Shown: piece by piece, positions 9,001 to 39,085 of the stretch
Position numbering within the stretch: position 1 is the first letter of the stretch
Layout of the letters: each line of letters begins with the position of its first letter
Assembly: GCF_964355755.1 (NCBI RefSeq)
Contig: NC_092672.1
Span: 37,640,437-37,704,436, forward strand
From: Antedon mediterranea
Taxonomy: Eukaryota > Animalia > Echinodermata
DNA: 64,000 nt
Direction: 5' to 3'
Made by a program: the position numbers and the translations under genes
Notes under the pieces: model-generated
What the model was told of the DNA's origin: nothing
The model's database searches: none
The model's input: the letters and a program-made list of their open reading frames with translations, nothing else

Positions 9001-12000
9001 TAAGTTTAGTTCATGATCAGCTAAACACAGGTTAAATGATTCAAACTTTATTTGCTGCAAAAAAAAAAAATATTTATAACATTACTTGCCAAAAAAAAAC
9101 GAATCTTAATATTATAAAATGTCTTTTAAAATGGACCTGAAATGGATTTTCGATTTTTTTCATTTTAGAATGATGTTTTGGGGGCTATTAGGTGTTGTTA
9201 GAATGTATATTGTTACAAAATATAAATTGGCCCTTTTGGGGAAAGCCCCATTTGAAAATCAAAAAAATTCGCGGGTGACGTCACTTTGCGAATATATTCC
9301 TATCCCTCCAATGGACAATTTGCAGTTTTTTGGCTATAACTCTTGAAATCTATGGAGTATTTTCTAAAAAATGCTTGTGCATTTGCAGAAACGTATTTAG
9401 AATTTTTTTAGATAAAATTAGTACCGTATAAACGGTTATTCATCGAGTAAATGACGATTTAAAATCTTAAAATCAACGGGTTTTTTCTGGCAATACCGAA
9501 GTTGGCCTGGCAACGTTGTCCGGGATACAGCTCCGTGTGCAATGATGCGTATCCATATTTTCCGTTCGTGTATTTTGTATATCGTTCGTAATTTATACTG
9601 CTAAAATGTGTTAGTTTCTTTAGTTTTTAGTTTAGCAGAATTAAATTAGTAATATGAGATGATAATTAAATTAGTAATATGAGATGATAATTTATTTCGA
9701 AAACGAATTTTATTCATATTTTACTTTGGCTTGACAATGAGCGCAGCAAGTTGTTGATATCGCTTTGGTCCTTGGATGCACATGAAACGGAGCCTCGCCG
9801 CATGATGTGGGTGGTGGATCGACTCCGCGCGCTGGATTGGGGGCCTAGGCCTAGTAAAGGTTTGGGAGGTAGGCCTTCTAAATTCGGGTTTTATAACAAA
9901 CGAAGTACATTTTAGGGACCTATATTTCAACAACATTAGATATTGAATAAATTAGTATTAGTGTCAACGCTTCGCGTATCTTTCCAGGCCGTCGATCATT
10001 CACTGACTATCGGGCGGCATACACGCTCTCGATATCATCGTGTATATGTGACGTCGTGAATATAGAGGCTTCCGACGGCCGTTGAAATAGAATATTGCAA
10101 TGGCGTGAGTAATTTTCGCTAATTTACCATGGTATCTTAAAATTTCGTTTTTACTCAAAATACTATACATTTTGTTTTTATTTGTATGGGTTTGTGTTAA
10201 TTTGATACATTTAAATAACATGTGTGCATTTCTTGAAAATCGAAATTCCATTTCAGGTCCATTTTAAACAAACATACAGTACTTAATATTGTAATAACTG
10301 AACACTGTCAACTCAAAGGTTATTTATAAAATTTTCTACTTTTATATATCAAAAATGTCAAAACTATTTAGTTGTTTTAAAACTTTACAACATGGGTTAA
10401 CTTGAAAACAAACTAAATTTAATTGTTATTTAAAAAATCTTTGATTTGTATATTTATCAGACTTAATGTTGTTTCTTAGAAAGCTCATGAACAAAATTTA
10501 GTAAAAAGAGAGAAAATGAGAATAAAATACCTTAAATGGATCATACTCAAGTGCTTTGACTACCAAGGCAGCAGTCCTGTACACTATCCCTGCCATAGTG
10601 AGTGACGACACGATTGGTCTCAATTCAAACAAGTCTGGATGGTTACACACTTTTCGTAATTGCATTAAAACATTTATAACACTCAAAAACTGTCCACTAG
10701 CTAGAGTTTCTTTTGTTCTAAAAACATAAGAGAAAAACAAAATTGAATTTCTTTTTAATGTACACATCACAAACATTTTATAATTTTGGAAAAATTGAAT
10801 TGAAAATTTAAATATGTTTGAACAGATTGTATCCTTTAGCAGGTATCCGAATAGAAACATAGAATTCTTTCCAATGTTTATCCAAAGGACTGGTTAATAT
10901 CTCCCCTATGAAACGGCCAATGTGAAAATGGTTACGATCTCACTTGGTAGCTGGAGGGGATTTAAGCATCTACTTAAGTTACATGCAATAATCAACTTAC
11001 TTAGTTCTAGACATGAAATCTTCATAGAGGTAGCGTTGTCTCTTGGATAATCTACACGTTACAATATGTTCATATTTCTTTGGTAGCTGTTTTTCAACTT
11101 CAATTTTCAATCGACGTAATAGAAATGGTCGCAAAACCTAGGGAAAACAATTTATATTGCTTGAAAATTGTAATACCTTCAAAGTATGAAGAGTACTGGG
11201 CCACCTTATAAGTATGAAGAGTACTGGGCCACCTTATAAGTATGAAGAGTACTGGGCCACCTTATAAGTATGAAGAGTACTGGGCCACCTTATAAGTATG
11301 AAGAGTACTGGGCCACCTTATAAGTATGAAGAGTACTGGGCCACCTTATAAGTATGAAGAGTACTGGGCCACCTTATATTGGTCAGTTACAACACAGCAT
11401 TTTAAAGAAACCAGTAAATCTTTTGGAAGAGTAGGGGTACCCCGGTGTACTGGTCCATTCAGCCCCTGTCGCTGTGTACAAACAAACAAACAAAGGGACC
11501 CTTACTTAGGGGAGTAGAAAGTTGTGTTATGTTTCATCCACACCCGTTGGCCATTTCGCTTAGTAGGCTGCAAGTCACATTTCATTCCCCCATATACATT
11601 ACAATACTCAACAGAGAAATTAATTTATTCTAGATCCCCACCCCTACACCTTCAATTTGTTTACACCCACTCTCGGCTACACCTTCAATTTGTTTACACC
11701 CACTCTCGGCTACACCTTCAATTTGTTTACACCCACTCTCGGCTACATGCCTGAACACAACAGATAACTTGTAATGCAATCAACTACCTACCTTATGCAG
11801 CCGTTTGATCAAGCCTTCATTATAATCTGTATTCCCTTCTATCATTCCCGTCACTGGGTTTGCAAACCATTCCTTGAATTCCCGATGGGATTGGAAGACA
11901 TGGGGCATAAGGAAATGCATAAGAGACCAGAGCTCCATCAGACTGTTTTGAAGCGGTGTACCTGTGAGTAGCAGACGACGCTGACTGTTGAAATTCAATA

Positions 12001-15000
12001 ACGTTTGCCACCTACAAACCAAAAGAAAGGTATCATTGTAAATGTTCATCTGGTTTCTAAATAACAATGTGTAAATATATGACCCTGTGTGTGTGTGTGT
12101 GTTATAATCTCGTAATTCGTACCATTGGTTTGATAAAAAGAATTTTTTACACACAATGCAAGGTAATTTGTAATATCTTTAGGGCTATTCCAAGATTTTT
12201 TTTGTGTGAAAAAAAAAGAAGAAAATGCAGACTCCAACTTAAATGAGAAGTATGAATGAATAATTATCAATAAGTTCAGATTGTATCCTTTAGCAGGTAT
12301 CGGAATAGAAACATATAATTCTTTCCAATGTTTATCCAAAGGACCGGTTAATATCTCCCCTATGAAACGGCCAATGTGAAAATGGTTACGGTCTCACTTG
12401 GTAGCTGGAGGGGATGTTCTTCAATTTATTTTAGTTCCATTCAAAATAGAAGATTGATTCACTAACAATTTAAACCAAAAAATAACAAAAATACAAACCT
12501 TTGCGATTTAAAGTTTTTAATATTTTGTGCTTCATCCAATATAAGATATTTCCACTTTTTTCTTCTAAATGCTTGATGGTCCTGTATCACTAATTGATAA
12601 GAAGTGATACAAACATGAAATGCATTGCACTTTGTCCAACCCTACCAAACAAAAATAACAATATTGAATCTAATGCTCTGTCAAAAAAATGTGATATGCT
12701 CAAATATGGTAGTAATATGACATGTTCATATTTGGGCACACCACAATTTTTGTCACATAAAGACACTACAAATAGAAAATAATATTGAATCTAAAGCTCA
12801 ATCTACACTATCGAACTAGTTTGACAAAAAAAAGTGTGATGTGCCCAAATATGGTAGTCATATGACATCATGTCCATATATGGGCATATCACATTTTTTG
12901 TCACATAAATTTTGATAGTGTGGACAGAGCTTAACTTGCAATATTCTTTGAAGCAGTTTTTATATTTTAAATTAGTTACAGATTGTATAATTTGGCAGGA
13001 TCTAGAATAGAATTATAAACATCAATGTTATGCTCTCATTTTAATAATTATATATTGTTTATGTATCCTTTAGCAGGTATCAGAATAGAAACACAGAATT
13101 CTTTCCAATGTTTATCCAAAGGACTGGTTAATATCTCCCCTATGAAACGGCCAATGTGAAAATGGTTACGGTATCACTTGGTAGCTGGAGGGGATTAGTA
13201 TACAAACACCGTGAAATCTGTGGCCAGAGGCTTACTAAGTGTTTATGACTAAGTTTCTCATGATCAGCAATTTAAGCATGGTTGCAGCTCACCTGTCGTT
13301 TCTGCTTCCTTTCTTTTTGGTTGCCAAAATAAGTGAGAATTTTAAAAGCAGGACACCATTTCTTTAATTCCATCTCCCAATTTAACATTACACTAGTAGG
13401 AACAACAATTAGATGAGGTCCCCATATACCTGTACAAAACAATGCATTCAAATGATAAATAACACCATTATTATACATTTGCAAAAAGAAAACTATATAG
13501 ACTGTAAAATACTGTATAACACTATTAATCATACCTTTGCGAAAACAAAATGATATAGGTTATAAAATACTGTAATTGTTGCAGCTAAAAGAACAATAAG
13601 TATGTACTTACCTTCTTCACAAGCAAGATGTGCTAGTACTGCTATTGTTTGTATTGTTTTTCCTAAACCCATTTCATCAGCTAATATACCATTTAGTCGC
13701 TTCTCATGCATTGTTACAAGCCAGTCTAACCCAATGTGCTGGTACTCGCGTAATGTATGTCGAAGAAGAAATGGAACTTTTGTTTTAACCTGAAATGAAA
13801 TACACACCTAGAGGGGTCAGTGATCCATTAGGCGCTATATAAATACTGTTTATTATTATTTTATTATATTTGGTTATGAAATATGATTCTTGTTGCATAT
13901 ATTATAGTGTACATGCTGTAAAATCTTGATTTTATATATTTCACCTCATTATTTGTCTTTGTTTTAAATTTCCTTCGCATCGCACAGCAAGAAACTCGCC
14001 AATTACAGGATGGATAAACTATTTTATAATTTATTGTGCTTATACTAAGTTTCATTTGATGTTTTGGGAGTGGAGTAGTGAGTTACAACCCTGGCACTAG
14101 GTCAGAACCCTAAGTTTCATTTGATGTTTTGGGAGTGGAGTAGTGAGTTACAACCCTGGCACTAGGTCAGAACCCTGGACATTGGGATTGGAAGGCAAGC
14201 ATGCTATCCACCAATCCAATAAAAACAAAACATGGTAGAAAAAATGCGACACACTTGTAATAATCTCAAAAGAAAAGCAAGAACCGTACCGCAGTGGTTT
14301 CTAGTGTATATCCTGTTGGCTGGATACTCTGAGCAGTGGCTGCAAATTCTGTTATCTCATTATTTGGACTGCTATCACTTGAACTCTGACAAAACAAAAG
14401 TTTAATGACTATGAATATATATATATATGTCAAAGATAAACTTTGTCATAAAATGTAAATACATTGAGAAAAGTGTTTTTCTTGGCAAGATAAGATAAAG
14501 CCTATGTAAATACAGTTTATCACCGATGATGGTAGAAGAGTTGCAGCCATGCAATAAATGTTAACATCAGGTTAGTTTAAAAGATTTTTATCAAATCCTT
14601 TATTATACATTTCGGAAATATGTCAAAGATTTTGAAATTTTTTACATTATTCACAACATCACCTAAAAAGTTGGAAAGCTCTCCAAAAAATCCGCAAAAA
14701 CAGCAGATGATATAAACTACCGTACTGAAAACTGTTTTAATATTTAGTCAAGTCATCCATTTGTAAATATTTTAATGCATTTTAAACCTCATTACCTACC
14801 TCTTCAGTTGGTTGCTTATTTTCTTTGTCTGGATTAAGCAAGTACTCAATATCCATTGCCTCTTTACTACTTTCCTCTTTATCTTCAATATCTTCCAATT
14901 CATCATATTCATCCGATTCGTCTGTATCTTCTATAAAAACAAACATAATATTTTGATTTATGAATTATTAAATATTAAAAGATACAGGGATTATGTTTAA

Positions 15001-18000
15001 ATAAGGTTTTGTTTCCTCAAATGACAAAATCACTATGATAGATGTATCCTTTGGCAGGATCTAGAATAGAAAGATAGAATTCCTCCTAGGTTTTATCCAA
15101 AGGACTGGTTAATATCTCCCCTATGAAACGGCCAATGTGAAAATGGTTACGATCTCACTTGGTAGCTGGAGGGGATTAAACAGTCGTATGTCTCTTACAA
15201 TTTAAAATATAACAGCAAATTATCAGTACTTTACTTTGAGATAAATAAAGAAATGAATTAAAGACACTACTGTGGAAACTGAACATGTTTTACCTATTTC
15301 AATAGTTATTATTTTCATGTTGCACTGCGAGACTCCGAGCGCTATATAAATGTTGGATATTATTATAATTATTTATTACAGAGCAATGACCTCACCTTCA
15401 GTAATAGTGTCATCATCATAATCATCCTCCTCTTGTTCATCATCATCATCACTATCTAACTCTGCCTCAAACTCGTCATTATACGCTGCCGCATATTTCT
15501 TCATCAGATCTTCAATAGATAGCTCTCCCTCGGCAGCTAGTTCATCTAATTCTGCTTTGTGGTCTTGACATCCCTCTGCATCTTCTTGTTCTTCCATTGT
15601 TTCTTCGTCATCAACAACTTTTAAAAGAATTTAGTTTATTTAGGATTTAAATTATATTTCTTTATTAATAATTTAAAAGTACAACAAAACACATGTTAGT
15701 GTGTATCCTTTAGCAGGTATCAGAATAGAAACATAGAATTCTTTCCAATGTTTATCCAAAGGACTGGTTAATATCTCCCCTATGAAACGGCCAATGTGAA
15801 AATGGTTACGATCTCACTTGGTAGCTGGAGGGGATTTAAAGCAAGTTTATTGTTTTACTAATTTAACTTTTTAAGTTGAATTCATACTCACTGCTAGCCT
15901 CCTCTTCATCATCAGTTGGAACAAACTCATTGTCTTCCTTTTCTTTTGATTCCTGAAACAAATTAAAATCAAATGTAAAAATAAAAAGCAACGTAACTAA
16001 TGACAGCCGTAATTGATTCTATGCTTTGTTCTTTATTTTAATTTATTCAAGAAGACTAACAAATCGGAAATGAGGAAGAGCAACAATATAAAATAATAAA
16101 AGAAATGAAAATAAAATCATGTAATCTGTATTATTAATTCAGACATTTAGTCAGCAGTCATGGAATTCCTTAAAAAGTTAATTTTTAATTTAAAGTAAAG
16201 GTCATATATTCTTCAACAGGTCACACAATGTATGTTAATAGAAAATGAGGTTAACCATACATTGCTGTATTTTGACCATCTGGTTTTTAAATATTTGGCA
16301 GTATAATAACCCAAAGTATGTTACCTTTGTTGGGGCTTTACTTGCGTCTAATTCAGCAGGTTTTTCTAGGATTTCAGGAGGGAGACTATCTAGTAGTTCT
16401 TGTATAGGTAACTGACTTTCCTTCTCAAGCAATTGCAACTCATTCTCTTCTGATTCTACATTTGTTCCCGCCTCTTCTTCTTCCACTCGTATCGTTGTTT
16501 CATCGTCTGACTCTTCATCTTCAGGTTGGAACTCCGCATCTGAATAAATAACAAAATTAACGTGAGGGCTCCAGGAAGTCTTTCATTGCTTCCGTTTAAA
16601 AGTGTGTTATGTATTCTATAATAATGGTGATACTGTAGTGTTAGTATGTATCCTTTAGCAGGTATCAGAATAGAAACATAGAATTCTTTCCAATGTTTAT
16701 CCAAAGGACTGGTTAATATCTCCCCTATGAAACGGCCAATGTGAAAATGGTTACGGTATCACTTGGTAGCTGGAGGGGATGCTAATGAACTATGTACTAA
16801 AATGTATTTATTTTATTCAGTCCACAACCAACAGCGATCAAACCGCCACTAACAGGTTGATCTAAACATAATAAACTATAATAATATATTCATATAAGCA
16901 ACAATAACATAAACAAAGATTGGAACATTATAGAGATTTAACAATTTTATCCTTAAATACATTTAAACTATCATAAATGAATCAATAGACATTTAATTTT
17001 TCTAAAGTGAAATTGCTAGACTTACCATCTTTTGGTGTTTCACCTATAGACCTTGTAGGGCTTGATGGGACAGATCCTATAGATGAGCCAGTAGTACTGA
17101 CATTCAAGCCTTCTGTAAGCCAGGAGGAATACTTCTCAGTTTGTCCAACAATGAAATCAAGTTGTAAATCAAGAGCCTTTTTCCTTCGCTCATCTAATCG
17201 ACTTTGTTGTTTGTATTGCACTACCTATAAAACAAAAAAATGATAAAAACATGTCTGTAGTTTTTACGAGTGTGGGTGGGTACCAATTTAAACAGGATGC
17301 AAATGTTTAGTCTTGAAAATAAACATAAATAAATATCCATTATAATGTAAGATCAAATTAAATACAAAAGAAAGCAGTTGCCTTTCTTTTGAGAGTGATA
17401 ATCTATTAATTTACGAAGCATTTTACGAGCCAGGCATTAAAATGTCAATGCTAGCCCCTGCCAATGCTTCGATGGAGTACAATCATTCTTGATAAGTTGA
17501 TATAGGAATGAATCTCACTGTAAAATCTTGTTGACTACCTCCCTACCCTTCGTAAAGGCTACCCATATGAATTTCTTTGTGAGATTGCCTCTTGACCACC
17601 CTTTGTATTTGCTATACTGTACATACTTAGAATATCTTCATACGATTGCTTCTATCTAAACGAACCTTTTCAATATTTGACCAGAACTGTTTAATTTCTT
17701 TGGCAATGTTGCTGGCTATCTTCCGCATTCTGCTGGCTTCATCTCGTTCAGCTTTCAGCATTTTAGATCGCTGTTCCTGGTGATGCTTAGCAACAGCTCT
17801 TGCCATCTATCAAGAAATAGTTAACAGAGGATAGTTGCCATTCAAAAGCTTCCTTAATTTGAGAGGCGGCCATTTTGGTCACTAATTATAATCATTAATG
17901 CTTTGCTTTTATTTGAATAATTATAAATTGTTTATTTATGTATCCTTTAGCAGGTATCAGAATAGAAACATAGAATTCTTTCCAATGTTTATCCAAAGGA

Positions 18001-21000
18001 CTGGTTAATATCTCCCCTATGAAACGGCCAATGTAAAAATGGTTACGATCTCACTTGGTAGCTGGAGGGGATGACGTACTGAATTGTAATGGTTTTACCT
18101 TTCGTGATGTAGCCTTTTTCCAACGTCTCTCACCAGCAAAATCTGCAGCTAGCCATTGCATCTCCTCAAGTAGGTAATCCCAGTGAGTCTTGTGCCTTGG
18201 CGGTTCCTGGACCTTAGGCAGTCGACGGGCAGACCACACACCTTCTTTTCTTAACTGACCTATTCGCTGCATAACATGCGCCTCCTACAAATTGTAGAAC
18301 AGCAAAACACCTCGTTTGAATCACATACTATCATTTACATTATTTTAATCTTTAACATAGTTGAGATGTATATTATAATTACAAAATTAAGATATGTGGA
18401 AAATGTACAAGTAATTAAATAACCCTGAAATACGGTTACATTTTAATGGTTTTTTTTGTTATGCCTTTCTGTACGTTTAAATTTTATGTGTAGTTTGGAT
18501 GTGAATTTGTCTACTTTTGATCAGTCATTTTTAATGTTTCAATCCTTGTAATACAATATTTTCAGACTTTTTTCTGCTTTTCGTAAATGTTTTATACATA
18601 CATAAATGTTTACATTTACTTAAAAAATATTCAATACCTGTTTAGCACGTTCTACAATTTTCTCCTGTGCTCCGATGCCCACTAGAGAGTTTTGTCGTCC
18701 AAGAGGATGGCGCCCTGCTGATGGTGGCGTCAACTTTCTTATTGATGATGGCGTCATGCTTTTTTGGGACGACATGATGGACGATGTGGGCGTAGGCGTT
18801 GATATAAGATTTGTTGGCCGGGATTGAAATTGATTGGATGCATTTGTAGGTTCTATAGAACAAGGAAATCGATATATTGTAGCTTTATACCACGAGTGAA
18901 TGTAAAAATGGCAAAAAAATAGATTGTGTTTACAATCAGGTATATATTAGTTTTTGATTTAGCAACATTGTTCTAAAAAAATTAGTATTAGTATTGTAAG
19001 ATCAAATTAAATACAAAAGCAAGCAGTTGCCTTTCTTTTGAGAGTGATAATCTATTAATTTACGAAGCATTTTACGAGCCAGGCATTAAAATGTCAATGC
19101 TAGCCCCTGCCAATGCTTCGTTGTTGAATTCAGGGGTATATACACAACCACACAACCAGTGGAGGCATGAACCTTTTGATCTGTGCAACACGCTTTAATT
19201 AAAAATAAAATTCTGCAATTAAAATAGACAAATGGTTTACCAGTTTTCTTGTGTTTGGTTTCTGATGGTATAGACAGGCTTATGGATACTGGTGTGGTTG
19301 CAGTCTTTGCAACCTCTAAAGTTACTTCTAGTCGGGATTCTACAACACCTAAAACAACAGAAAGGAAATAAACATTAAAACAAGTCTTTCTACACTGTCA
19401 AACTAGGTATCCCAATGAAAAAATTCAGATTAATTTTTTTACATTTTCTTTCAGTTAACCATAAAGAACTTAATGTAATTAGCATTTTGCAATTTAAATG
19501 ATTGAAATCCGATTACCCGTTCTAAAGTTATGGTTATTTAAAGTGGTAAAAAAATATACGATTTTTTGCCTAAAAATGGTGTTTTTTGCAGTTGAAATTG
19601 GAAGCATTTTTAAAAGGTTATAACTTTTACAATAATTAGTTAAAAGTTTTGAATTTTGTTAAACCTATAGATATCACAGAGTTGTACAACTCTATTTTTT
19701 TTGGAGCCTCAACGAAACCTATTTTTTAAATTATTGGTCCGCAAAGTGGTAGGAAAGCATTTAACGCCCATTTTTGCTGGAATTCCCTAAAAAATGAAAA
19801 AACTGCAATTTTTCAATGATCTGTAACTTTTGAACTACTGTACTAATTCATTTAATTTTTTTTGTACTTGTTAGAATGTAGTGTATATTTCATTAATAAA
19901 TATATTTTAGATGTGTATATGAAAAAAAATATTTTTTTTAATGGTGAAATTTAAAATTATAAAAAAAAAAATGAAAAAGTATGTTAAAAACGGTGTGTAC
20001 TGTTTCCTTTCTTTTACACTAATTTTCGGTAAGTATAATTATTAGAATATTTTAATATACTTTATATTTATAATTTCAATCATAAATACTATTATATATA
20101 ACTTTTGAATACGTAAAACAAGATTTTAGGCCCATATGATTATGACACCAAATCTAAGCTAAGTAAGATATGCTCTTTTAAGGCAAACGCACAATATGGG
20201 TCAAAATAAACTCATTTAAAATAATCAATGTTAATTAAAACAATTAATTGTTTACCTGAATAGTATATATAACATTATAAAAATTGTTTTCTTTTCGTAT
20301 TATTACGTTATTAAATTGAAATACGGAGCTAAAGTTTAGGCCAAGTCACGGCTTACTCGCGATCAGTAGTCGCTCCCGTTAAAGTATTTCGGTCGCAGTT
20401 AATGACTTTCGGCCGCCGTATACAGAGTCAAATGTAACGTTGGTAAATTAGCTTAATAAATTTCCTCGGTACATTTTAACCTAACGCATTTGCATTGTAT
20501 ACTTGCATAATAAATCTTCCGCACATTACATCAATTTTAAGTTGTTAAATTAATGTGTAAAACCAGATATTCTGCGACGGAAAAGGACATGTCAATCTCC
20601 GACATCGCTGCTGTCATCACACATCTCGCGTCGAGCCGGTCGAACTCGAGCGAGGAAAACTAAACAACGTGTTCAAAATATGGAACGTACCATTCGCTGA
20701 TAGGGTGCATTAATGTATTTAACGGAAAACGCCACAACAAACACGCGCGTATTTTAGAGTACAATATTTTACTCACTACAATATTCACCGGATTATAATG
20801 GTTGGATCTTTAAAATTTTGAACGGGATTTACGCCTCATGCACCATTTTAAAATGTAGTTCGCACAATTACCATGCACAATACGTTTGTAAACTATGTTT
20901 TATCGATTTCAATGTAGATTTAGCTATAATTTAATACCAAAATCCATAATATTTTTCCATAAACGGTGAATCAAAATTGGATTTTTGTCACAAAAATTGA

Positions 21001-24000
21001 CTTTTCGTTACGAAAAACCTATTTATAGAAGACGATTTTCGTATCAAATTAAAGCTTATTTAAAGCCTGATAACATACAACAAAAATTAATCCGCTAGCT
21101 CCAATGGTAATCGTGCGATCGTGTTTTGAAAACTTATGGGGATTTTCCGATGAGGTTTTCAACGCGCGGAAATCGGCTCGACGGGATTTTAGAACCGTTT
21201 TAAAATCGCATTTTCTCGGCAACTAATTCATTAATTTTAATTATAAACACACTTATACATAGATTAAAACAAGTACTTTCAAACAATATAAATTTTGTAA
21301 GTATTAATTAAGATTGAATACGATTTATTTAACATCAAAGTCATACTACTTTTTCGAATTTCGTCAATATTTCAAAAGTGATACCCCTCTGTGCGCTTTC
21401 ATTGGGATACCTAGTCAAACTTTATGCGACAACAAAATTTGATTTGTTTGAACGAGTTAAATACAAAGATAGGTATCAATCCTTTCTCTGTGAATGAGTA
21501 ACATTCAATTTCTTTACGAAGCATTTTACGAGCCATACAGTACAGAAAGAAAATACTGCAACTTTACCTACGAAGTAGCTTCGTAGATAGAACGTAGGCT
21601 ACGTTGTTGGCTTCGTAGGTTCCATTGTTTGGCTTCGTAACCTCAATAAACAACTTTCAATGAGCTACGTTCTGAACTTCGTAGGGAGTTCGTAACCTAA
21701 ATAAACAACCCTACGATGTTCTTAGTGAAGTAAGGTGTGAAATTAATGTGTTAAATTTAATTGGCGGAGGACAAAGTTGTAAATTAATAAAAAATAAATA
21801 ATATTTTGTAATCGTAATATTTTCCTTCGTGCGTGTTTACCTACTCAACGGCGAATATAAATATAAATTTCCCACAATGTATAACGTAGAGAGAGACACG
21901 ATCCAACACCGGTGAACCGCAACGAACAGGCCAACTAATATAATAAACATAATATAGCGAACGTCACATCCAGAAACGATGCCGAGAAAAAAAGATCGTA
22001 AACAATTCATTCTAAATATAGCATCAGGACGTTCAATCGGTCGCTCAAAAAGACTGCCGACAGAAGACCGTAATTAATACAGACCTAGTTTTTTTTTGGT
22101 CACATGGCATGAAATGCGATACTCTCTGCTTACCGCAATCTCTCACATGTTTTTTTTACTCAGTACGAGCTCGACGAGAGAGTGGCTACCGTCTGACGAC
22201 GATAAAACAGTAATTAAGATCGTGTACCTGGATTTTGTGTCACATGACATGAAACATAATACTCTCTCTCTACTGTGCTCAGCTCACATGTTTTTTCCCC
22301 TCCAAATTCTGGTCGGGTCTTTTTCTTTATACATGTCGTAATCATTTAAAAAAAGGCCTATTTATGTATGTTAAATCTTAATATGGAATATATATTTATT
22401 TTGCATATATTTTGTTGGTGTCCTAGCGTAGGTGTCGTTGTTTTTATAATTCGCTAACCCAACAAGGTAGGAATAAATAATTTATAGTGTAGGCCTAGGC
22501 CGCCGAAACAGGCTAGGCCTAGCCTCGACTCTCTCTACGTGAGCTGAGGTCCACCGGCCCGATGTCCGTCCAAATTAGGATAACCGATGCGTAGGGCGGC
22601 TACAAAAATTGACCTACTATCTTTAGGTAGGATTTTAATTAGCAAACAATACATTGTTTGTTTGCATTGTCCATGCTTCTACGAACCACCCTACGATCGA
22701 GGCGTAGCCTAGATTTCATAACAATACATCGTAGGCTACGAACAATACATCGTAGGTAGGAGAGAACAATACATCGTAGGCTACGAACAATACATCGTAG
22801 GAGAGAACAATACATCGTAGGCTACAAACAATAGATCGTAGGCTACAAACAATACATCGTAGGAGAGAACAATGACCTACGTTCTACCTACGATCTACCT
22901 ACGAAAGCCTACGCGTAGATACGAAGCAGTAATTTCTTTCTGTACTGTACATTAGGTTATTCAATGCCAACCCCTGCCAATGCTTCGATAAACTACCATA
23001 CCAACTCTTAGCATTATTCTTCAACGGAAATAAGTTAAGTAGTATAGCAAGTACAGTAGAACCTGTGTTTTACGCACCCTAATTTTACGTACGCTTATAA
23101 AAGCTGTATAAATACTGTACTTTTTTTTTTTTAGGCCTCGCATCTTGCTAGCCTGGCCTGAATAGTCTAGGCAAGGCCTAGCTAGTGACCACCTGCATGC
23201 TGTACAGTAAAGTAGGCCTAGGCAAACACGGTAGCCTTTATAGCTACGATCTCTATGTATTTGGGGACAATTTAAGGTCAACCTGGATTTTAAAAATCTC
23301 TTGTTTTACGTACGCCTTTAGGTCACGTACCGTACGTAAAATGACGTTCCACTGTAGTATTTATTGCTTTCCAAGAACAGTACAATTTATAAAACAGCAT
23401 AAATATTTGATTGAAAATAAACACATAGAATAATACAAACATTAAACTTGAGAAATTAAACAAGCAAAGCAGGGGCCCTTTAAGCCCCCCAAAGGGGTCC
23501 CAATAAATTTAGCCTGAATTGTTTGATGGATTGGAAATGCATACCTGCTACAGGTTTATGTGTTTCCTCTTTAACCTTTGTTTTTGGCGGCTCTTCACTC
23601 TTACCGGTAGTAGAATCATCTAGGCCTGCTTGCGCAATAGTTCTCTTCCTGTCACTAGATGCCGCCGGAGGTGTCGACACAGTTGTTGCAGCTATTGTCT
23701 TTGAACTATTGCTACTAGAACTAGAGGTCTTATCTGAAGATGATGATTTTGACTAAAAAGACAAATACATTGCATGAAACTGCTTTTTCCATTGAATCAA
23801 TGAAAATATCATACAATAATTACCAAGATGTATCATTTGGCAGGATCTAGAATAGAAACATAGAATTCTTTCTAGGTTTTATCCAAAGGACTGGTTAATA
23901 TCTCCCCTATGAAACGGCCAATGTGAAAATGGTTACGGTCTCACTTGGTAGCTGGAGGGGAAGGTAAATAATTATGACATATGTTCAAAATTACTACGGC

Positions 24001-24968
24001 AATAAAATATATATTGATTTTTCCAAGACAGACATATGCTAGACCATTTTCAATGAGCAGAATCTTACCTTATGTGAATCACTGGACGACCTCCGAACTC
24101 CACCAGACCCGTCTAGAGCCTGAGCCTGAAGAAAGCTTACTAGTTGAGGCGTCGGCCTTTTTCTATACGCAACAAAATCCATCATGTTCCCATCTTTTTG
24201 CAAGAAAAATAGTTCAATTAAATTCTCAGTATAATTTTCTTTGAGTTCTTTGAGTTCACGCTCTTTTCGTAAAAGGACGCACCTTCGTAGTTCAAGTAAA
24301 TCATCACTACGAGGATTGTCTGGTAATTGTACTTGCATTTTTAACATCTTAGATGATGGATGAGAAGGCATGTGACTTGCATGGGATGGGCTCCCTGTGG
24401 CTGGACTCTTTCGGGTGTTTGAACTTCGACCTGAGCTTACATTTCCTGGTCGCTTGTGAGTGGTCAGCTGGCTTGTTGTTATCGCCACAGGTATGTTCAT
24501 TGTGCTTAACCCCTGTGTGTTTTGGAACTGCACAGTCTGAATAGTCTGCTGAGGACTGGAACTGACCACATTCACAGTTTGAGGAAGTTGCAGAAGGCGC
24601 CCGTGTTGTAAAATTAAGGGTGCCTGACCGCTCTGGACAGAAGAAGTTGCATCGAGTATGCTACCTGATGGACTAACGGGCACCTTTATGAAACTTGGCT
24701 GTGGGGTACCCTGGTTTGCGAAGTTCCCAGTTCTCCTTGGAGTTCCTTGTATAGATCTAATTTGGGATCCAGTTTGCTGTGTATTGATGGTAGCAACACC
24801 TGCTGGGTTGACCAGTTGTTGTTGGGCCATGATCAACTGGAGTTGGTTTTGAGTTGATGAGGAATTTCCTTGATTTTGATTCATCCCAGAGGCTGCAGCA
24901 GCAGCAAGCACCGATTGGATAATATCGGCCGGTTGCTGAGAGGGGGGTTGTCCATTTCCACGTTGCAT
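58..24968 (-). CDS. SRCAP: SRCAP/domino (SWR1-family SNF2 ATPase, H2A.Z exchange), 5' part; continues beyond left edge
   Basis: HSA-region exon ([33 protein letters not shown]), SNF2 motifs [58 protein letters not shown], followed by the S/T/Q-rich insertion typical of SWR1-like ATPases. GT-AG exons read by eye: 24069-24968, 23545-23752, 19241-19348, 18638-18852, 18099-18284, 17666-17806, 17026-17224, 16325-16539, 15892-15952, 15396-15617, 14800-14930, 14290-14385, 13612-13789, 13293-13429, 12499-12641, 11792-12011, 11001-11137, 10531-10717, 8679-9054, 8282-8484, 7013-7121, 6185-6400, 5176-5367, 58-518. Confidence 0.95.
1520..2560 (-). mobile_element. L2/CR1-type LINE reverse transcriptase fragment (degraded)
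   Basis: ORF 1593-2399 with [31 protein letters not shown]; frameshifted continuation [12 protein letters not shown] is typical of L2/CR1 ORF2. Confidence 0.85.
2706..4417 (+). mobile_element. 5'-truncated RTE-clade LINE with (TAAG)n tail and 8-bp TSD
   Basis: RT motifs [48 protein letters not shown] (ORFs 2944-3192 and 3387-4391, with frameshifts/stops). 3' hairpin cccacttaatagtggg, tail taagtaagtaag, TSD tttggtca at 2698-2705 and 4418-4425. Confidence 0.9.
5395..5817. repeat. 38-bp minisatellite (gttgatataataaatgttgataagttgatatcattaat)
   Basis: About 11 near-perfect tandem copies. Confidence 0.95.
5846..5980 (-). ncRNA. Candidate intronic box H/ACA snoRNA (single copy)
   Basis: Minus strand: hairpin UGGCCA..AGCAUG..CAUGCU..UGGCCA with internal loop, H box AAAUUA, second hairpin closed by CUUUA/UAGAG, ACA three nt from the end; 135 nt; sense to host. 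Confidence 0.55.
6602..6760 (-). ncRNA. Candidate intronic box H/ACA RNA (single copy, 5' end uncertain)
   Basis: Minus strand: H box AAAGCA; 3' hairpin AUCCC/GGGAU with pocket UGCUCACGAA / ACCUCAAAAU and upper stem CUGAGA/UCUCAG; ACA 15 nt below the upper stem; sense to host. Confidence 0.5.
6770..6975. mobile_element. Degenerate/partial copies of the ~150-bp agctctgtctacactatcaaact MITE family
   Basis: Two left-TIR copies (tctgtctacactatcaaact) plus internal atatggtagt / catgtccatat motifs shared with full copies. Confidence 0.7.
7260..8056. repeat. 32-bp minisatellite (aacacaacggcgatacaagcggtcatcaaaag)
   Basis: About 25 tandem copies with no spacers. Confidence 0.95.
8056..8198. mobile_element. 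~150-bp MITE (PIF/Harbinger-like family)
   Basis: TIRs agctctgtctacactat / atagtgttgacagagct. Confidence 0.8.
9130..10263. mobile_element. Non-autonomous TTAA-inserting DNA transposon (Kolobok-like)
   Basis: TTAA-aatggacctgaaatgga ... tccatttcaggtccatt-TTAA; no long ORF. Confidence 0.8.
10825..10961 (-). ncRNA. Box H/ACA snoRNA family 1, copy 1 (subtype a)
   Basis: 137 nt, two hairpins with pockets, H box AUAUUA, ACA+3; in intron 10718-11000. Confidence 0.88.
11182..11377. repeat. 28-bp minisatellite (aagtatgaagagtactgggccaccttat) x7
   Basis: Perfect tandem copies. Confidence 0.95.
11378..11520 (+). mobile_element. SINE fragment with Deu/Nin-like core
   Basis: taaagaaaccag...gaagagtaggggtaccccggtgtactgg matches the core of the SINE at 61440 and resembles the Deu-domain consensus as I recall it. 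Confidence 0.55.
11644..11746. repeat. 33-bp tandem repeat x3
   Basis: ctacaccttcaatttgtttacacccactctcgg repeated. Confidence 0.9.
12279..12415 (-). ncRNA. Box H/ACA snoRNA family 1, copy 2 (subtype a)
   Basis: Near-identical to copy 1; in intron 12012-12498. Confidence 0.88.
12795..12931. mobile_element. ~140-bp MITE with TAA TSD (PIF/Harbinger-like); partial duplicate at ~12674-12760
   Basis: taa-agctcaatctacactatc ... gatagtgtggacagagct-taa. Confidence 0.8.
12981..13012 (-). pseudogene. Remnant of a family-1 subtype-b snoRNA 3' end
   Basis: tgtataatttggcaggatctagaatagaa matches the ACA end of copies 4 and 8; the rest is missing. Confidence 0.65.
13059..13195 (-). ncRNA. Box H/ACA snoRNA family 1, copy 3 (subtype a)
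   Basis: Near-identical; in intron 12642-13292. Confidence 0.88.
14046..14217 (-). mobile_element. tRNA-derived SINE head fragment with internal ~65-bp duplication
   Basis: Minus strand ggattggtggatagcatgcttgccttccaatccc...gggttctgacc resembles A/B boxes; ctaagtttcatttgatg...aggtcagaacc occurs twice. Confidence 0.5.
15040..15176 (-). ncRNA. Box H/ACA snoRNA family 1, copy 4 (subtype b)
   Basis: Same 5' hairpin; 3' hairpin has compensatory changes (CUAGGA/UUCUAG upper stem, UUUGG/CCAAA lower stem); in intron 14931-15395. Confidence 0.88.
15699..15835 (-). ncRNA. Box H/ACA snoRNA family 1, copy 5 (subtype a)
   Basis: Near-identical; in intron 15618-15891. Confidence 0.88.
16644..16780 (-). 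ncRNA. Box H/ACA snoRNA family 1, copy 6 (subtype a)
   Basis: Near-identical; in intron 16540-17025. Confidence 0.88.
17343..17471 (-). ncRNA. Box H/ACA snoRNA family 2, copy 1 (subtype a)
   Basis: GAAGCAUU/AAUGCUUC stem with pocket GGCAGG / CGUAA, H box AAAUUA, 3' hairpin AGAUUA/UGAUCU with pocket CACUC / AUUU, ACA+3; in intron 17225-17665. Confidence 0.85.
17936..18072 (-). ncRNA. Box H/ACA snoRNA family 1, copy 7 (subtype a)
   Basis: Near-identical; in intron 17807-18098. Confidence 0.88.
18992..19120 (-). ncRNA. Box H/ACA snoRNA family 2, copy 2 (subtype a)
   Basis: Almost identical to 17343-17471; in intron 18853-19240. Confidence 0.85.
19404..21413. mobile_element. 2-kb non-autonomous DNA transposon (TAGG...CCTA termini) inserted into a MITE remnant
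   Basis: 17-bp TIR taggtatcccaatgaaa / tttcattgggataccta; flanking duplication gtcaaac(t), 7-8 bp; the empty site restores ctacactgtcaaactttatgcgac of the ~150-bp MITE. Confidence 0.85.
21442..22988 (-). pseudogene. Family-2 snoRNA copy 3 (subtype b) interrupted by a 1.4-kb transposon
   Basis: 21442-21537 joined to 22950-22988 gives a near-identical copy of 25082-25215. Confidence 0.85.
21538..22947. mobile_element. Non-autonomous TIR element with TA TSD and ctacga/tcgtag subterminal repeats
   Basis: TA-cagtacagaaagaaaatactgc ... gcagtaatttctttctgtactg-TA; superfamily uncertain (Tc1/mariner-type or CMC-like). Confidence 0.88.
23054..23354. mobile_element. pogo/Tigger-like MITE
   Basis: TA-cagtagaacc..ttttacg ... 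cgtaaaatgacgttccactg-TA imperfect TIRs. Confidence 0.65.
23826..23962 (-). ncRNA. Box H/ACA snoRNA family 1, copy 8 (subtype b)
   Basis: Matches copy 4, with one mismatch in the 3' lower stem; in intron 23753-24068. Confidence 0.85.
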
Positions 24969-25081
24969 AATTGGGTTTTTTTAACTATAAAAATAAGATT
25001 AGTTTTAACAATAACAGTAATTCTTGCAAAACCGACTAGATTGTAAACAAATAGGTGACAAACATATAATATAATCATTTT

Positions 25082-25215
25082 CAATGTTTGAATGAGTTAA
25101 ATACAAAGAAAGGTATCGATCCTGTCTCTGTGAATGAGTAACATTCAATTTCTTTATGAAGCATTATACGAGTCATACATTAGGTTATTCAATGCCAACC
25201 CCTGCCAATGCTTCG
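25082..25215 (-). ncRNA. Box H/ACA snoRNA family 2, copy 4 (subtype b, intact)
   Basis: Same pockets as subtype a (GGCAGG/CGUA; UACUC/AUUU) with rewritten stems (UUGAAUG/CAUUCAA), H box AAAGAA, ACA+3; in the intron upstream of the ATG exon. Confidence 0.85.
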
Positions 25216-25588
25216 ATAAACTAATCCATACCAGGGGATAGTATAATAACTAAGCCTCTAGCTAGCTTGTCTATACATTTACATTGCTACATCAAGCCCA
25301 CCACTTTCTTTGGTATATCAATTATCATTATCAGACAGTGAGTGACAAAAAAGGAAGCATTTTTTCACCAACAAAATGTTATAGGAGATTGAATAATACA
25401 TGCAAGCAGTATGCTACTATTCTAATGATGTACATGACCTAATTCAACAACTCTAGGTCCAGGCTTGCAAAGGTAGCCCTCCTAAAGTTAAGCCACTCTT
25501 TACCCTTAGACCTACTGTACCACGGGGTTTCCCTCTACTCATGAATGAGCCCTCTGGAGAACATACAAACCACGTAAGTCTGACTCAC

Positions 25589-26819: not shown

Positions 26820-29800
26820 TCATTTTTGGGATGGAAGAACTATGCTAACACTATCACTTGAATCACTGTCTTCTATACTGTTAATTAATTCATTTTCTAC
26901 TGACTCCTTGTGTTTTTTGTTGATAAGTTTTCTGTTCCTCTTCCAATGATTATCGAGAAAAGAATCAACTACAGTTTTTTGTAATCTTTTCTCATTTTTT
27001 ATATGACCATCATAAGCCCAAGTTTCTGGAATGGGTGCTGTTTTATTCTTCCAGTCTTCAGCTAAAAAAAAATATTAATAGAAAGAGGTTTATATTTTCG
27101 GGGGAAAGCAATTTGTAATAGATGGGCTATCAACAACATGCAAGCACATTTTGGAATAAATCATTTTAAAATGATTTAATAGAGATTTTTGTTTACACCA
27201 CTATGATGGTTCAAGATTTTACATTAATTTGAATAAATTGGATGGATATACTCTTACCTTTGTCGGGAAACCCTCTGGATGAAAACTTCCATTTCTGAAG
27301 AAATTCTTTGTTGCTACCACCGGACAAAAGTTTAGGTGCCACAGAGCAGCCAGTATCAAGCTGGATAATACATCGTTCTGACCTTTGACATAGGTCATCT
27401 TCAGAATCTTGCCAATTCTCAACACTTGCCACTGTTTCTTCACTGTTTTTCTTAGTTGCTAATGTTTCACTAGAATGTATATGATCACCGACAGAAACAT
27501 TATTATCAGATGAAGCTATTTCATCAATTATTAATTTACCTTCACTTCCAACACAGCTCTCATCATTATTATTTTCACAAAGTATTATATCATCTTTATC
27601 CTCATCTTCTGTCAAATTTCTTTCAAGGTTACTTTGAGACATTACCTTGTACATATTAGTAATTGGATTTTTTTGTATTATTATTTTTGTGTCATTTTTG
27701 TACACTGGATTTTTCTTCTCAATAACAGATTTTTGTTGAGATAAACTAATTTCATTATCCATATGTGATTCTACTCCTGGTAGTGACTTCATTGTCTCAT
27801 TTTGTGTCTTATTCTCTGCCATCTCCATTCCACCAACTTTATTTTCTGGTAATTTCTCTTCTTCAGGAATATTTTCTGGTAATTTCTCTTCTTCAGGAAT
27901 AGTTAAATTCATCTCACTATTTAACAACTCATTTTCTTTTCTTAGACTATTCTGTATATTACAATTGTTAATGCCGTCTATTTGGTCATCTCCAATATCA
28001 ACAACTTCTACTTGTTGTTCAGGAATCATTATATAGCTTTCATCTTCATTTCTCGGAGTTTCAATAAAGGATGGTTTTTCATCTTTCTTTTTTTTCTTTT
28101 TTGAATATCTAGATTTCTTTTCTTCGATATTACTATGATCATCAAAACTTTCTGTAACAGTTTCGTCTGAATGTTTATATTGTTCCAATTCCATTTGTTC
28201 AACATCACTAGAGCATTTATGTTTCTTTTTCCTTGTCTGTTGGTCAACCACAATGTTTTCAATAATATTGTTAATAATAGAAGTAATTTCTTCACCGTTG
28301 TCAACACTTGAAGGTGAAAACAATTCTTCTGATTCTGTATATAAATCTTGAGCATCAGTTGAGCGTTTTCGTTTCTTTTTTTTCTTCTTTTTAAGTATAA
28401 TATTTTCTTCTTCAGGAATGTTACATTCATTAGCTTTCTTAACTATTTTTTCTTCATCTAGACTTGATTTTTTGTGTTTCTTCTTTTTCTTTCGTGCAAT
28501 ATTTTCCCCAATTCCCTCCATTTCATTTGCTTTTTTTTCTTGTTCATTTTCTATTTCCTCTTCAGAAATGTTACCTTCATTAGCTCTATCAACTATTTCT
28601 TCTTCATTTGTTACTGTTTTTTCAACTATTTCTTCTTCATTTGTGACTGTTATTTCATGACTTGTTCTTTTGTGTTTCTTCTTTTTCTTTCGTGCAATAT
28701 TTTCATCAATTCCCTCCATTTCATTTGCTTTTTTTTCTTGTTCATTTTCTATTTCCTCTTCAGAAATGTTACCTTCATTAACTCTATCAACTATTTCTTC
28801 TTCATTTGTTACTGTTTTTTCAACTATTTCTTCTTCATTTGTGACTGTTATTTCATGACTTGTTCTTTTGTGTTTCTTCTTTTTCTTTTTCTTTCGTGCA
28901 ATATTTTCATCAATTCCTTCCATTTTATCTGCCTTTTTTTCTTGTTCATTTTCTATTTCCTCTTCAGAAATGTTACCTTCATTAGCTCTATCAACTATTT
29001 CTTCTTCGTTTGTTACTGTATTTTCAACTATTTCTTCTTCATTTGTCACCGTTATTTCATGACTTGATCTTTTATTTTTCTTCTTTTTCTTTTTCTTTCG
29101 TACAATATTTTCCTCAATTCCTTCCATTTCATCTGCTTTTTTTTCTTGTTCATTTTCTATTTCCTCTTCAGAAATATTATTACATTTATTAGCTCTATCA
29201 ACTAGTTCTTCTTCATTTGTCAATGTTATTTCATGACTTGATCTTTTATTTTTCTTCTTTTTCTTTTTCTTTCGTACAATATTTTCCTTAATTCCTTCAA
29301 TTTCATCTGCTTTTTTTTCTTGTTCATTTTCTATTTCCTCTTCAGAAATATTATTACATTTATTAGCGCTATCAACTATTTCTTCTTCATTTGTCTCCGT
29401 TATTTCATGACTTGATCTTTTATTTTTCTTCTTTTTCTTTTTCTTTTGTGCAATATTTTCCTCAATTCCTTCCATTTCATCTGCTTTTTTTTCTTGTTCA
29501 TTTTCTATCAAATTAAGGTTTACTTGTTTGTCATTCAAACTGTCTACTTCATGATTCTCATTTTCTCTTATTTTCTCCGATTCAATTTCAGTCTGCTCAA
29601 CTACTACAAGCAACTTATCTTCACTTTTTTGCCTTTTTCGGTTACTTTTAATAAAATCAGTTTCCTCATCTAGTTTTCGTTTTGATAGTGTTCCTGAATC
29701 TTGCTCAGTACTACAAATTTCTGTAGAAGTGTTTTTATTGTTTTTCCTTTTCTTTTTCTTCTTTTTATGTTGCTTTCCTATGATATCTTCACTTATTTCT

Positions 29801-30357
29801 CTTTCTGTTGGCAATGCTAACCCTTGAATTAATTCATGTGCATCTACATTTTCTTGTTCTTGTGTTGCCACTGTTTCGTGTTTTTTACTTTTAATTTGTG
29901 TACGCTTCGATTTCAACTTTTTAGGCTTTTTCTTAGATTTTTTACCTTTTTTAGACGTTTCTTTCTTTCTTTGATGATGTTTTTTGCGATGCGATTTTGC
30001 CAATAAAGAAACAACTTGAGTCATTATAGTATTAGCGGTACTTTTATCAAGGCGAGATTCAAGTCCACATCTTATTTCATTTAGTTTACACGTTTCCTTT
30101 GTAGTTTTTTTAACACCTTTTTTCTTTGGTTTAGAACTGATTGATGTTTGATCAGATGGTTTAGAACCAATTGCTGATTGGTCAGCAGGTTTAGAACCAA
30201 TTGCTGATTGGTCAGCTGGTCTAGAACCGACTTGTGATTGGTCTTGCATATATGTTTTGTCTAAGGAATCTTTCTTTCTTGATTTTTTATTTTTTTGTTT
30301 TTTAACAGATATTTTGTTTGATGTAGATCCACTTTTCTTTTTCTTCTTGTGCTTCAT
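26820..30357 (-). CDS. Uncharacterised ~1113-aa Lys/Glu-rich, largely low-complexity protein
   Basis: Exon 27258-30357 (acceptor before 30403, donor GTAAG) splices in phase 1 to exon 26820-27061 (AEDWKNKTAPIPETWAYDGH...PSQK*); long uninterrupted ORF with internal repeats. Confidence 0.8.
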
Positions 30358-30751
30358 ATTAATAATTTATTCACACTTTTTTAGTATGCTTTTTTAAATA
30401 AATCTGGGGAAAAAAAGAAGAAATATCATTTTTGTCAATTTCATGCCTAGTCACTACACACTTCACATACCCAAACAAAAGACCAACAAACTTGGCCATG
30501 TCACGGTCACTAGGCGCTTACAATTTTTTTTTTTAGTTTTAAGGATGGTACCGATTATAATTATATCCAAAAAAAGTTTTTAATATACTGTATTACAACA
30601 GTATGCTAGGGGCGACTTTGCGTTGGTTGGGGCGACATTGTATTCGGCGACTTTGCGATGGGGCGACTTGACTGGATCCCGTACTACTATAGGATTAATA
30701 GGCCTTAGTAATAGTAGCAGGCCTCCTAGCTACTGTAGGCTCTAGCTAGTC

Positions 30752-36742: not shown

Positions 36743-39085
36743 TTATACTGGAAGTGTGTCTTTGGTAATAGTAGTTGGCACGGAAACGCACTGTATTCCA
36801 ATGATGTGATTGGACAGTTCTTTGCTTGAGATTCTTAGTTGTGCTTTCGATGCTGAAATACTCGGGATCTGTTTAATTGTCAACAAACCCGTCAAGAAAT
36901 CTGGTAAGATGGAGAACAGACTCCCTCGGCACTTTAACGGAATGCCTTGATACGCACAGTGACCTTTTGCCCACAAACCAGTGAACGTATCGTAGAAAAA
37001 AAAGTGATTGAAATTGCTGACTATGAGAAACTCGTTAAACGCTACTACTTTTGTGTCTCGTAGTTTTTGGAAAGAAGGGATACTTGTGTGTTTTCTTACA
37101 TGCCACTCATCGGTTGTAGGTTCATAAATTTGCTCACAATGTTCCTCTATAAGGAAGATCTTACCAACGCAATCTGCAAATATTGGGCGATAACTCATCG
37201 AGATTTTTGACGGTGGCGGACTCAAATCATTCCATGTTTCCCGTTCGTGGTTATAACTAAAAAACGTTCCGTAACCGCTGTCGTAAATTATGAGCAAATA
37301 AGCAATGTTGTCTAGACTGATCAGCTGGCAATAATTCTTCAGGATGCATGGTGGCGGAATTGTTTTAGCTGAGTTTGTGGCAAGATCAATTAGAAGAATG
37401 TGTCTTTGTTGAGTAACAGCTAAAAGTAAGCCATCTCCTACGCTGGCGACAGATGTCCACATTGAATGGCTTGACGTTTTCTCACTGCAATCTATTTGTA
37501 GATTGCCGTATTCGCACCAGGAGCCTCCTGATTGGTCGTTGGTGTCTGGTACAAAGCAACATGTTTGTAATCGTTGCATTGCTGGCGCTGTATTGTTATC
37601 AACCGTATTATTGTCTTTAGTGAAAGGTGTCCACACAAACATCAAAATCGTTTCATTCGGCGTGATTTGGTTCGATACGTTAGTTACGTTGACAGCGGGT
37701 CTCAATCTATTTATTGGAGATACCTGTTGATAGAGCTTAATCTGAGACAGATGTGACTGGATTTCGGGAACAAAATTTGTGGAAGCACTTATATCATCAT
37801 AGGAAGCTGGTTTCAGATGCGTTTTCAAAGTTGCCAGGATATTAGAGAGTTGCGATGTCCTATCAGTTGCATCATGTTTGCACCATTTATCAAGAGCTTG
37901 TACAAGTACCATCGGAGAATGTAGAAGAACATTCGATGTCGACACAACATCAATCAAATGCAAATCTGTCAGACGTAGAAAGCTGTCTTGTTCGCTAACT
38001 TTCACAAAATCCTGCTGGATGTATTTTTTTGTTGATTGATACAACAAACGGTAGACATGAAATTGACTTGAGAACATAAAAATGTCAACACAATTTTCAC
38101 AGCAGATTTTGTCCAATAAGCATTTTGAAATTTCTGTACAGAGGTCATCCATTTGTAACATGTCGGCCGCTTCCATCAAATCAAACAAATCTGCCATGTC
38201 AGTTGTAACATTTTGATAATAAAGAAATGAAATAATTTGTTCAAGAAGAAACGGGTTAATTTGATACAGATTGACGAACCCTTTGCGATTTTCTGCCATA
38301 TTTGATCCGAACATCGCGTAGAAGTAGTCACTTCGTACAGACAAGATTAAACGATGGCAGAAATAGGTAACAGATTTTGAAGTGATGACCACATCAGACG
38401 ATGAAGTGTCATTCCATATGCTTTTGATATGTTGCACAATTCTCTGAAAGACTTTGTAAGAATGGTCGATCATCTTTCCTTGAGATGTGCCAGTCATTTT
38501 CAGAAAGTCCTCTGAATCTTGGACTAACTCTGGCATCTGTGAATAAAAATAACAATTCATTACAATTTGTCAACATTTATCATTATCATATTGTTTATTA
38601 TCATGTCAGCATTTTTCTTGATTTATGTTTAATAACCATACAAATTTAAAGGTTAGAATGATTGAAAAACAAACTCCTGCATACAATATATGGTCAATAA
38701 ATTCAAATAGTAAATCACAACTCACCTGCAAAAATATTGCCAAATCTAATACGCATTTTGCATTCAATTGCGTTATGTGTAACTGTCCAGTATAAATATA
38801 TTCCACGAGTTGACTCAATATTGTCTTTGCGATTCGAATTTCATGTAATGGTATTTCCAAATTGCGATTGGAGTTGACAGGAATATCTCTTGCATAGCCA
38901 GACACCAATGATAGGATCAGTCTATGACAAGACAACCTGCAGTCAGCATTTCCAATGCTGATATCTGTTAGGAAACCTTGTTTTTGAGCTTCGTAAAGTT
39001 TATTCAGAAGGCTAAAATGATCTTTGCAAGTGTTCTTGATGGTAAGATTCTCTTTTGATGTTTCATTTGTAGGTAACGCATTCAT
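36743..39085 (-). CDS. Kelch-like protein with two BTB domains, BACK domain and degenerate beta-propeller (~717 aa)
   Basis: Exon 38726-39085 (LTDISI..CHRLILSLVSGY..LVEYIYTGQL..AIFLQ) spliced in frame to 36743-38536 (SDVVI..CHRLILSVRSDYFYAMF..AADMLQM..ENC..F; C-terminal YNHERETW and YEPTTDEW kelch-like motifs). Confidence 0.85.

Follow-up and report, generated by a model that had tools for sequence, protein, structure and literature searches.

An intronic H/ACA family in an SRCAP-like gene

The DNA analysed here is a stretch of 64,000 nucleotides from the echinoderm Antedon mediterranea (NCBI RefSeq assembly GCF_964355755.1, contig NC_092672.1, forward-strand positions 37,640,437 to 37,704,436); the whole stretch is called the window, and positions are counted from its first letter. 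An exon of an SRCAP/SWR1-type ATPase lies at 13535-13789 on the minus strand (best match human SRCAP, E 4e-28), and introns of this SRCAP-like gene carry a family that we identify, on sequence grounds, as real box H/ACA small nucleolar RNAs (snoRNAs), displaying every feature of the class that can be checked in a sequence. There are four intronic copies in two subtypes. Their 5' pocket probably guides pseudouridine formation at the equivalent of human U1681 in 18S ribosomal RNA (rRNA), and their 3' pocket would act at the U815-equivalent in subtype 1 and at the U557-equivalent, perhaps also at U815, in subtype 2.

A BLAST search of the window against itself returned exactly four family copies, all on the minus strand and at the places given in a preliminary description of the locus (17343, 18992, 21442, the latter disrupted, and 25082). 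The division into two subtypes proposed there also held, with 97% identity between the copies c1 and c2 and 75% between c1 and c4. Subtype 1 comprises two intact snoRNAs, c1 (17343-17471, minus strand; ends placed from the stem and ACA+3) and c2 (18992-19120, minus strand). Subtype 2 comprises c4 (25082-25215, minus strand) and c3, which is split into a 5' piece (22948-22987, minus strand; GGCAGG at 22973-22978) and a 3' piece (21442-21537, minus strand) with CGUAA, the H box, the entire 3' hairpin and the ACA. Between the pieces lies a TA-flanked element of 1.4 kb (21538-22947, no strand assigned) with 24-nt terminal inverted repeats, whose ends we infer to be Tc1/mariner-like; it interrupts the 5' hairpin within its upper stem, between both halves of the 5' pocket. 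In runs X5 and X10, a copy of subtype 2 whose flank resembles that of c3 continues uninterrupted over the insertion point, so that the insertion is likely to be young or polymorphic. At c4 the window differs from all four compared runs at 25157, 25166 and 25173, all in the 5' hairpin, and these three changes, including pocket CGUAA to CGUAU, are therefore private to the assembly.

All copies are host-sense and intronic, one per intron, as judged from contigs for c1 and c2 and from sequence for the predicted introns of c3 and c4. One contig of run X5, a run that we assume, as a guess, to be RNA, lacks the GT-AG intron around c1 (17225-17665, minus strand); another contig of X5 continues from 18853 into the sequence of the next exon, bridging the c2 intron (18853-19240, minus strand). 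For c4 the likely host intron, probably in the 5' leader, is 24985-25588 (minus strand; splice sites from sequence only). The distance from the snoRNA end to the acceptor is 118 nt for c1, 139 nt for c2 and 97 nt for c4. A 2.0-kb element (19402-21415) shares the intron with c3 and moves it to about 2 kb from the acceptor; the 19-nt inverted ends of this element are perfect, and a 7-nt direct repeat borders it on each side.

Unconstrained folding of c1 and c4 gave the hairpin-hinge-hairpin-tail shape, and the two-hairpin folds scored z = -5.4 (c1), -4.4 and -4.2 (c4) against 100 shuffles each. The hinge contains an H box of the form ANANNA, which reads AAAUUA in c1 and c2 and AAAGAA in c3 and c4 (17407-17412 in c1, 19056-19061 in c2, 25150-25155 in c4), and in all four copies an ACA follows the second hairpin (17346-17348, 18995-18997 and 25085-25087 in c1, c2 and c4, respectively), from which the 3' ends were deduced. 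The combined pattern of 5' pocket and H box occurs three times in the window versus 0.01 times expected, a figure to be read with the pattern's derivation from the same copies in mind. The CAB box (UGAG) of small Cajal body-specific RNAs was not found in the apical loops of c1, c2 and c4. Double changes that preserve pairing affect 7 of the 39 predicted stem pairs, six in the 3' hairpin and one in the 5' upper stem, and amount in effect to one comparison because two of the three sequences are nearly identical. The earlier claim that the stems had been rewritten by compensatory change was not confirmed: of the nine pairs in the 5' lower stem, eight are identical in c1, c2 and c4, the three intact copies, and one is broken in c4. 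Nor are the pocket bases kept in every copy, as had been stated: c4 reads CGUAU, which leaves 10 pairs, although all four compared runs read CGUAA.

Predicted 18S targets of the two pockets

We took as a guide pocket one that offers at least 8 pairs, leaves U-N unpaired and places the target 14-16 nt from the box; eight pairs are the required minimum and may be spread unevenly over the two sides (PMC6049503, partial text). Pairing was scored on 18S sequences of other species, using 59 ribosomal DNA (rDNA) loci drawn from metagenomes by means of a motif that lies downstream of the target. The taxa of these loci carry no labels and include non-animals, and many of the sequences are nearly the same. 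Eight near-full 18S sequences were scored; a ninth, L054, was excluded as a near twin of L051. On these sequences the family presents bipartite pockets of 11, 9 and 12 pairs, with U-N unpaired and 15 nt from the box.

The 5' pocket GGCAGG/CGUAA (17457-17462 and 17423-17427 in c1, 19106-19111 and 19072-19076 in c2, 25201-25206 and 25166-25170 in c4, the last as CGUAU) forms 6+5 Watson-Crick pairs with 18S UUACG-U-C-CCUGCC, 15 nt from the H box, and uses the entire 6+5 nt internal loop in doing so; the pairing scans thus agree with the 11 pairs and the spacing described before. This 18S motif was intact in 46 of the 59 loci, differed or lay out of register in 11 and was without coverage in two. 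The U1681-equivalent was the best match of the pocket in all eight 18S sequences, with 11 Watson-Crick pairs in six of them. In controls on locus L020, 11 pairs were reached by none of 500 shuffled 18S sequences and none of 1000 shuffled pockets; the 10 pairs of the c4 variant were reached by 0/500 and 1/1000, respectively. Four 18S loci (L022, L042, L049, L052) read AUACG before the target U and would pair fully with c4 CGUAU, probably by coincidence. No 28S rival of the 5' pocket scored above 7.5 on the full 28S of L069, and over the five loci with 28S the best rival scores were 7.5 for the 5' pocket, 8 for the 3' pocket of subtype 1 and 9 for that of subtype 2, leaving aside the 18S target, which L081 contains at its start. 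Rival targets in the internal transcribed spacers, 5.8S and the 5' part of 28S never exceeded 6 pairs (5/5 loci). Loci L069, L070, L072, L074 and L081 are eukaryotic rDNA inside prokaryote assemblies, i.e. contamination, and L069 and L072 contain group I introns.

The label U1681 is correct: downstream of the U, the U1692-equivalent comes at 11 nt and the C1703-equivalent at 22, with fly site 1820 anchoring the count, and the assignment to U1681 rather than U1692 in the preliminary description stands. We take its E. coli counterpart to be U1380, which pairs with A935 close to the E site. In vertebrate 18S an A replaces the C two bases before the U and would break the CGUAA pairing.

None of the four maps compared, those of human, S. 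pombe, Arabidopsis and fly, records a modification at this U, and the negative applies to these four only. In the available passages of the complete human 18S mass-spectrometry table Am1678 is followed directly by Psi1692, without 1681 (PMC6182160), and the available part of the S. pombe 18S map lists nothing between 1616 and 1680 (PMC4605285), which agrees with the earlier statement that the site is unfamiliar from human and yeast. Arabidopsis U1619 is missing from predicted and mapped sites alike (PMC8351944, Supplementary Table 3), and the accessible text of the same paper describes yeast helix 28 as free of modification. Even a very permissive fly Psi-seq data set, with 228 highly reproducible 18S calls, shows in its accessible part none between 1783 and 1819, a strong one at 1820 and no call at U1809, the U1681-equivalent (PMC9997552). 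Text searches of the literature for U1681 and U1617 found no paper; two of the three matches to "1681" in a Xenopus supplement are genome coordinates. In Sulfolobus 16S, Table 1 of the map has no site near the U1681-equivalent. A search of the whole window against Rfam, which had been suggested as a check for a known guide, yielded no family at gathering score.

The 3' pocket of subtype 1, CACUC/AUUU (17393-17397 and 17360-17363 in c1), forms 5+4 Watson-Crick pairs around the second U of AAAU-U-AGAGUG, which was its best match in seven of the eight 18S sequences. This U is a known site, human 815, fly 841 and S. pombe 772/yeast 759. The register at U814 gave no match under contiguous pairing.

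In subtype 2 the pocket is UUACUCAUUC/AUUU, and the unconstrained fold opens a 10+8 loop made of UUACUCAUUC and AUUUAACU (25132-25141 and 25095-25102 in c4). It had been described as UACUC, but these bases lie 4 nt below the upper stem, and those flush with it are CAUUC. The previous assignment of the 3' pocket to U815 thus fits subtype 1, whereas in subtype 2 it would demand the 4-nt register shift or, with the flush pocket CAUUC/AUUU, 5+4 pairs including one G-U. The same pocket forms 9+3 Watson-Crick pairs with the second U of GUAAU-U-GGAAUGAGUA, a pairing that depends on the 18S stretch GAAUGAGUA. This U was the best match in seven of the eight 18S sequences, with 12 pairs in four, and on L020 none of 500 shuffled 18S sequences and none of 1000 shuffled pockets reached 12. 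We place it at about human U557 because it lies 33 nt before the A590-equivalent, a landmark matched in two of six loci. Human U572 was rejected as the target: fly Psi531, equated with 572 by counting, lies 15 nt downstream. The U557-equivalent has no entry in the tables for human, S. pombe and Arabidopsis and was not found by motif in that for fly. The pockets of the subtypes differ by one letter, CACUC versus CAUUC, and by four more complementary bases in subtype 2, and we give about even chances to the prediction from these sequences that subtype 2 also targets the U557-equivalent.

Contigs of two further organisms, B and C, contain the family. The 5' pocket is kept between subtypes that are 75% alike and also in organisms B and C, and the subtype 2 3' pocket is unchanged in both. 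For c4 of organism B we counted 15 differences in 72 nt of intron flank versus 7 in the 129 nt of the gene, three of the seven being those private to the assembly; one contig covers c1, with 1 difference in 89 nt.

Other features of the window

A second H/ACA family, with eight minus-strand copies, occupies introns of the same SRCAP-like gene (10828-10961, 12282-12416, 13060-13195, 15042-15176, 15695-15835, 16640-16790, 17937-18073 and 23828-23967). Its 5' pocket fits 28S GGGAACG-U-GAGCUGG with 7+6 pairs, including two G-U, and for its 3' pocket one of nine registers tried fits CAGGU-U-AGUUU (4+5) in five of five loci. In human numbering these 28S sites would be the known 4491 and 4522. The family gave weak Rfam matches to TB9Cs4H2 and SNORA26.

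Upstream of the SRCAP-like gene and on the same strand lies an SPT6 gene (46600-63600, minus strand), of which one exon has its best matches in hemichordate and echinoderm proteins (68-69%) and which carries a long repeat of GMTPR-type units (47099-47566) at the C-terminal end. Two long reading frames at 36746-39109 (minus strand) resemble, by eye, a BTB-domain protein, and a lysine/glutamate-rich frame of 1051 residues with 174-204-nt repeats is present at 27214-30366 (minus strand). Frames that look by eye like retroelement reverse transcriptase and transposase are found at 2878-4388 (plus strand), 1596-2399 and 40252-42794 (both minus strand). Tandem palindromic units at 30748-31088 matched several microRNA models weakly, far under threshold, and are probably a hairpin-forming repeat.

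Alternative readings and comparison with known guides

H/ACA RNAs are released from introns, trimmed and assembled with four proteins, and the unpaired U held in their pocket is isomerised. For the present family, splicing of the host introns would let the snoRNAs be trimmed free and assemble with dyskerin/Cbf5, Nop10, Nhp2 and Gar1; pre-18S would then pair with the two halves of the pocket, leaving U-N free, and its U would be isomerised, accumulation of the RNAs and modification of the U being the steps that we infer. All intact copies would serve the U1681-equivalent, to which subtype 1 would add U815 and subtype 2 likely U557, perhaps U815. If the site sits, as we suppose, at the head end of helix 28, a pseudouridine there should make the local stacking stiffer.

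Several points weigh against this account. Pairing was scored in other species, and the same motifs are presumed in the animal's own 18S. The U815 match of subtype 1 is statistically weaker, being equalled in the L020 controls by 4 of 500 18S sequences and 13 of 1000 pockets. Pairing at U557 drops to 10-11.5 in three of the eight 18S sequences and fails in one (C at the base), has only 3 pairs on one side and was found post hoc. In this haplotype each of the two copies of subtype 2 carries damage, c3 by its split and c4 by three private changes, one of them in the pocket. Conservation is shallow because organisms B and C are close relatives, with no more than 5 differences from the window in about 200 bases of exon. 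Contigs run across the copies at intron-level depth and display no discrete RNA, something that contigs cannot reveal. Finally, some snoRNAs pair well and yet leave endogenous rRNA unmodified (PMC8522698, partial text).

The last point leads to a different role for the 5' pocket, which might bind the helix-28 neck of pre-18S without modifying it, as a folding chaperone or as a competitor of the Am1678 C/D guide, leaving only the 3' pocket active. The Am1678 base does lie inside the 18S stretch paired with the 5' pocket, three bases from the site, and is 94% modified in human according to a partly available source; moreover, none of the four maps compared has this U modified, in the parts accessible, and the available text of PMC8522698 reports both non-modifying, well-paired snoRNAs and competition of overlapping guides. 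We nevertheless judge a binding-only pocket to be distinctly unlikely. As to the 3' pockets, it is rather unlikely, in our estimate, that both subtypes guide U1681 and U815 and that the U557 match of subtype 2 is a coincidence. The flush CAUUC/AUUU still offers 5+4 pairs with one G-U at U815, and the fourth base of AUUU, common to the subtypes, is needed there and mismatched at U557; against this, subtype 2 has four additional bases that lengthen the Watson-Crick pairing at U557 alone (an estimated chance of about 1 in 200), and the C-to-U change weakens pairing at U815 while permitting U557.

The helix-28 site might instead be old or convergent, already modified and catalogued in Euglena, trypanosomes, Tetrahymena or nematodes. 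Euglena probably has pseudouridines within a few bases of the U1681-equivalent, and the 18S motif is near-universal in eukaryotes (46/59 loci); the rRNA modifications of Euglena number 349 (PMC7672448, partial text). With no Rfam family aligning with these pockets, and with the empty text searches for U1681/U1617, such a prior record seems unlikely. That these repeats are no functional RNA genes but decaying duplicates or fragments of transposons is highly improbable. The split of c3 by an insertion and the repeat-rich window would suit decay, but the fold z-scores, boxes, spacing, stem double changes, two rRNA matches per copy and divergence below that of the flanks argue against it.

Guidance of U1681 by all intact copies, with the 3' pockets divided as above, remains our preferred account. 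A bolder version of it, possible but doubtful, holds that two 18S pseudouridines of this invertebrate lineage are unrecorded in any eukaryote, one next to Am1678 where the helix-28 neck ends towards the head, the other at U557, and that the one family installing both has been caught retargeting: a C-to-U change and a four-base extension would have moved the 3' pocket of one paralogue off U815 while the 5' pocket stayed fixed. The family reveals no new mechanism. Maps of pseudouridine in rRNA exist for few animals, and by title no echinoderm data were among the literature matches listed. Should the neck between head and body of the small subunit indeed be modified, this would be a concrete and cheaply testable difference between animal ribosomes. 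Yeast-type 18S shares the target motif, which makes yeast a possible host for expressing the guide and probing the role of a single pseudouridine.

Guides for the conserved partner site are known. We take snR80 to be the guide of yeast Psi759, and Rfam presumably includes a family for the fly guide Psi18S-841. With an E limit of 10, the Rfam search linked neither subtype to SNORA28 or fly Psi18S-841, and the snR80/S. pombe guide has no sequence match to the family. The best weak match of both subtypes in Rfam was SNORA79 (RF00600; 22.2 and 22.0 bits versus a gathering score of 55), which differs in the letters of its 5' pocket; together with ceN101, snopsi18S-1377, TtnuHACA16 and TtnuHACA23 it was rejected for scores below threshold and unlike pockets. 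Human SNORA49 in EP400 was rejected as a relative on account of its target, 28S-2826. U70-type guides, of which we take SNORA70/U70 to be the one for Psi1692, act on the same 18S stretch, modified at human 1692, fly 1820 and Arabidopsis 1630, whereas the present family places its unpaired U 11 nt upstream. We further assume that fly dom is the SRCAP/p400 orthologue and that its cluster holds the Psi18S-841 guides. Literature searches found no paper confirming that dom hosts them; only if this hosting is right would host gene and one target agree and an old link between host and guide be suggested, with orthology as a lead. That dom hosts a snoRNA cluster is stated in PMC13228274 (partial text).

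Vertebrate SNORA28 (ACA28) guides 18S Psi815, the same U as predicted for subtype 1, in all vertebrates tested, but has Psi866 as its second target, unlike U1681 here (PMC6984369, partial text). In the parts available, S. pombe Psi772, the S. cerevisiae 759 position, is the same second U of AAAU-U-AG (PMC4605285), and fly 841, the U815-equivalent, is strongly modified (PMC9997552). The closest parallels to the proposed change of target are Xenopus pug18S-137, derived from SNORA16, and pug18S-324, derived from SNORA58, which switched target by point mutation in hairpins that evolve independently (PMC6984369, partial text); those switches were mapped experimentally at other sites and in another lineage, whereas ours is predicted from sequence. 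As vertebrates have already furnished examples of sites confined to particular species and of guides retargeted by point mutation (same source), the predicted sites and retargeting would be a case of a known phenomenon, for which the two subtypes would set a pocket changing its target side by side.

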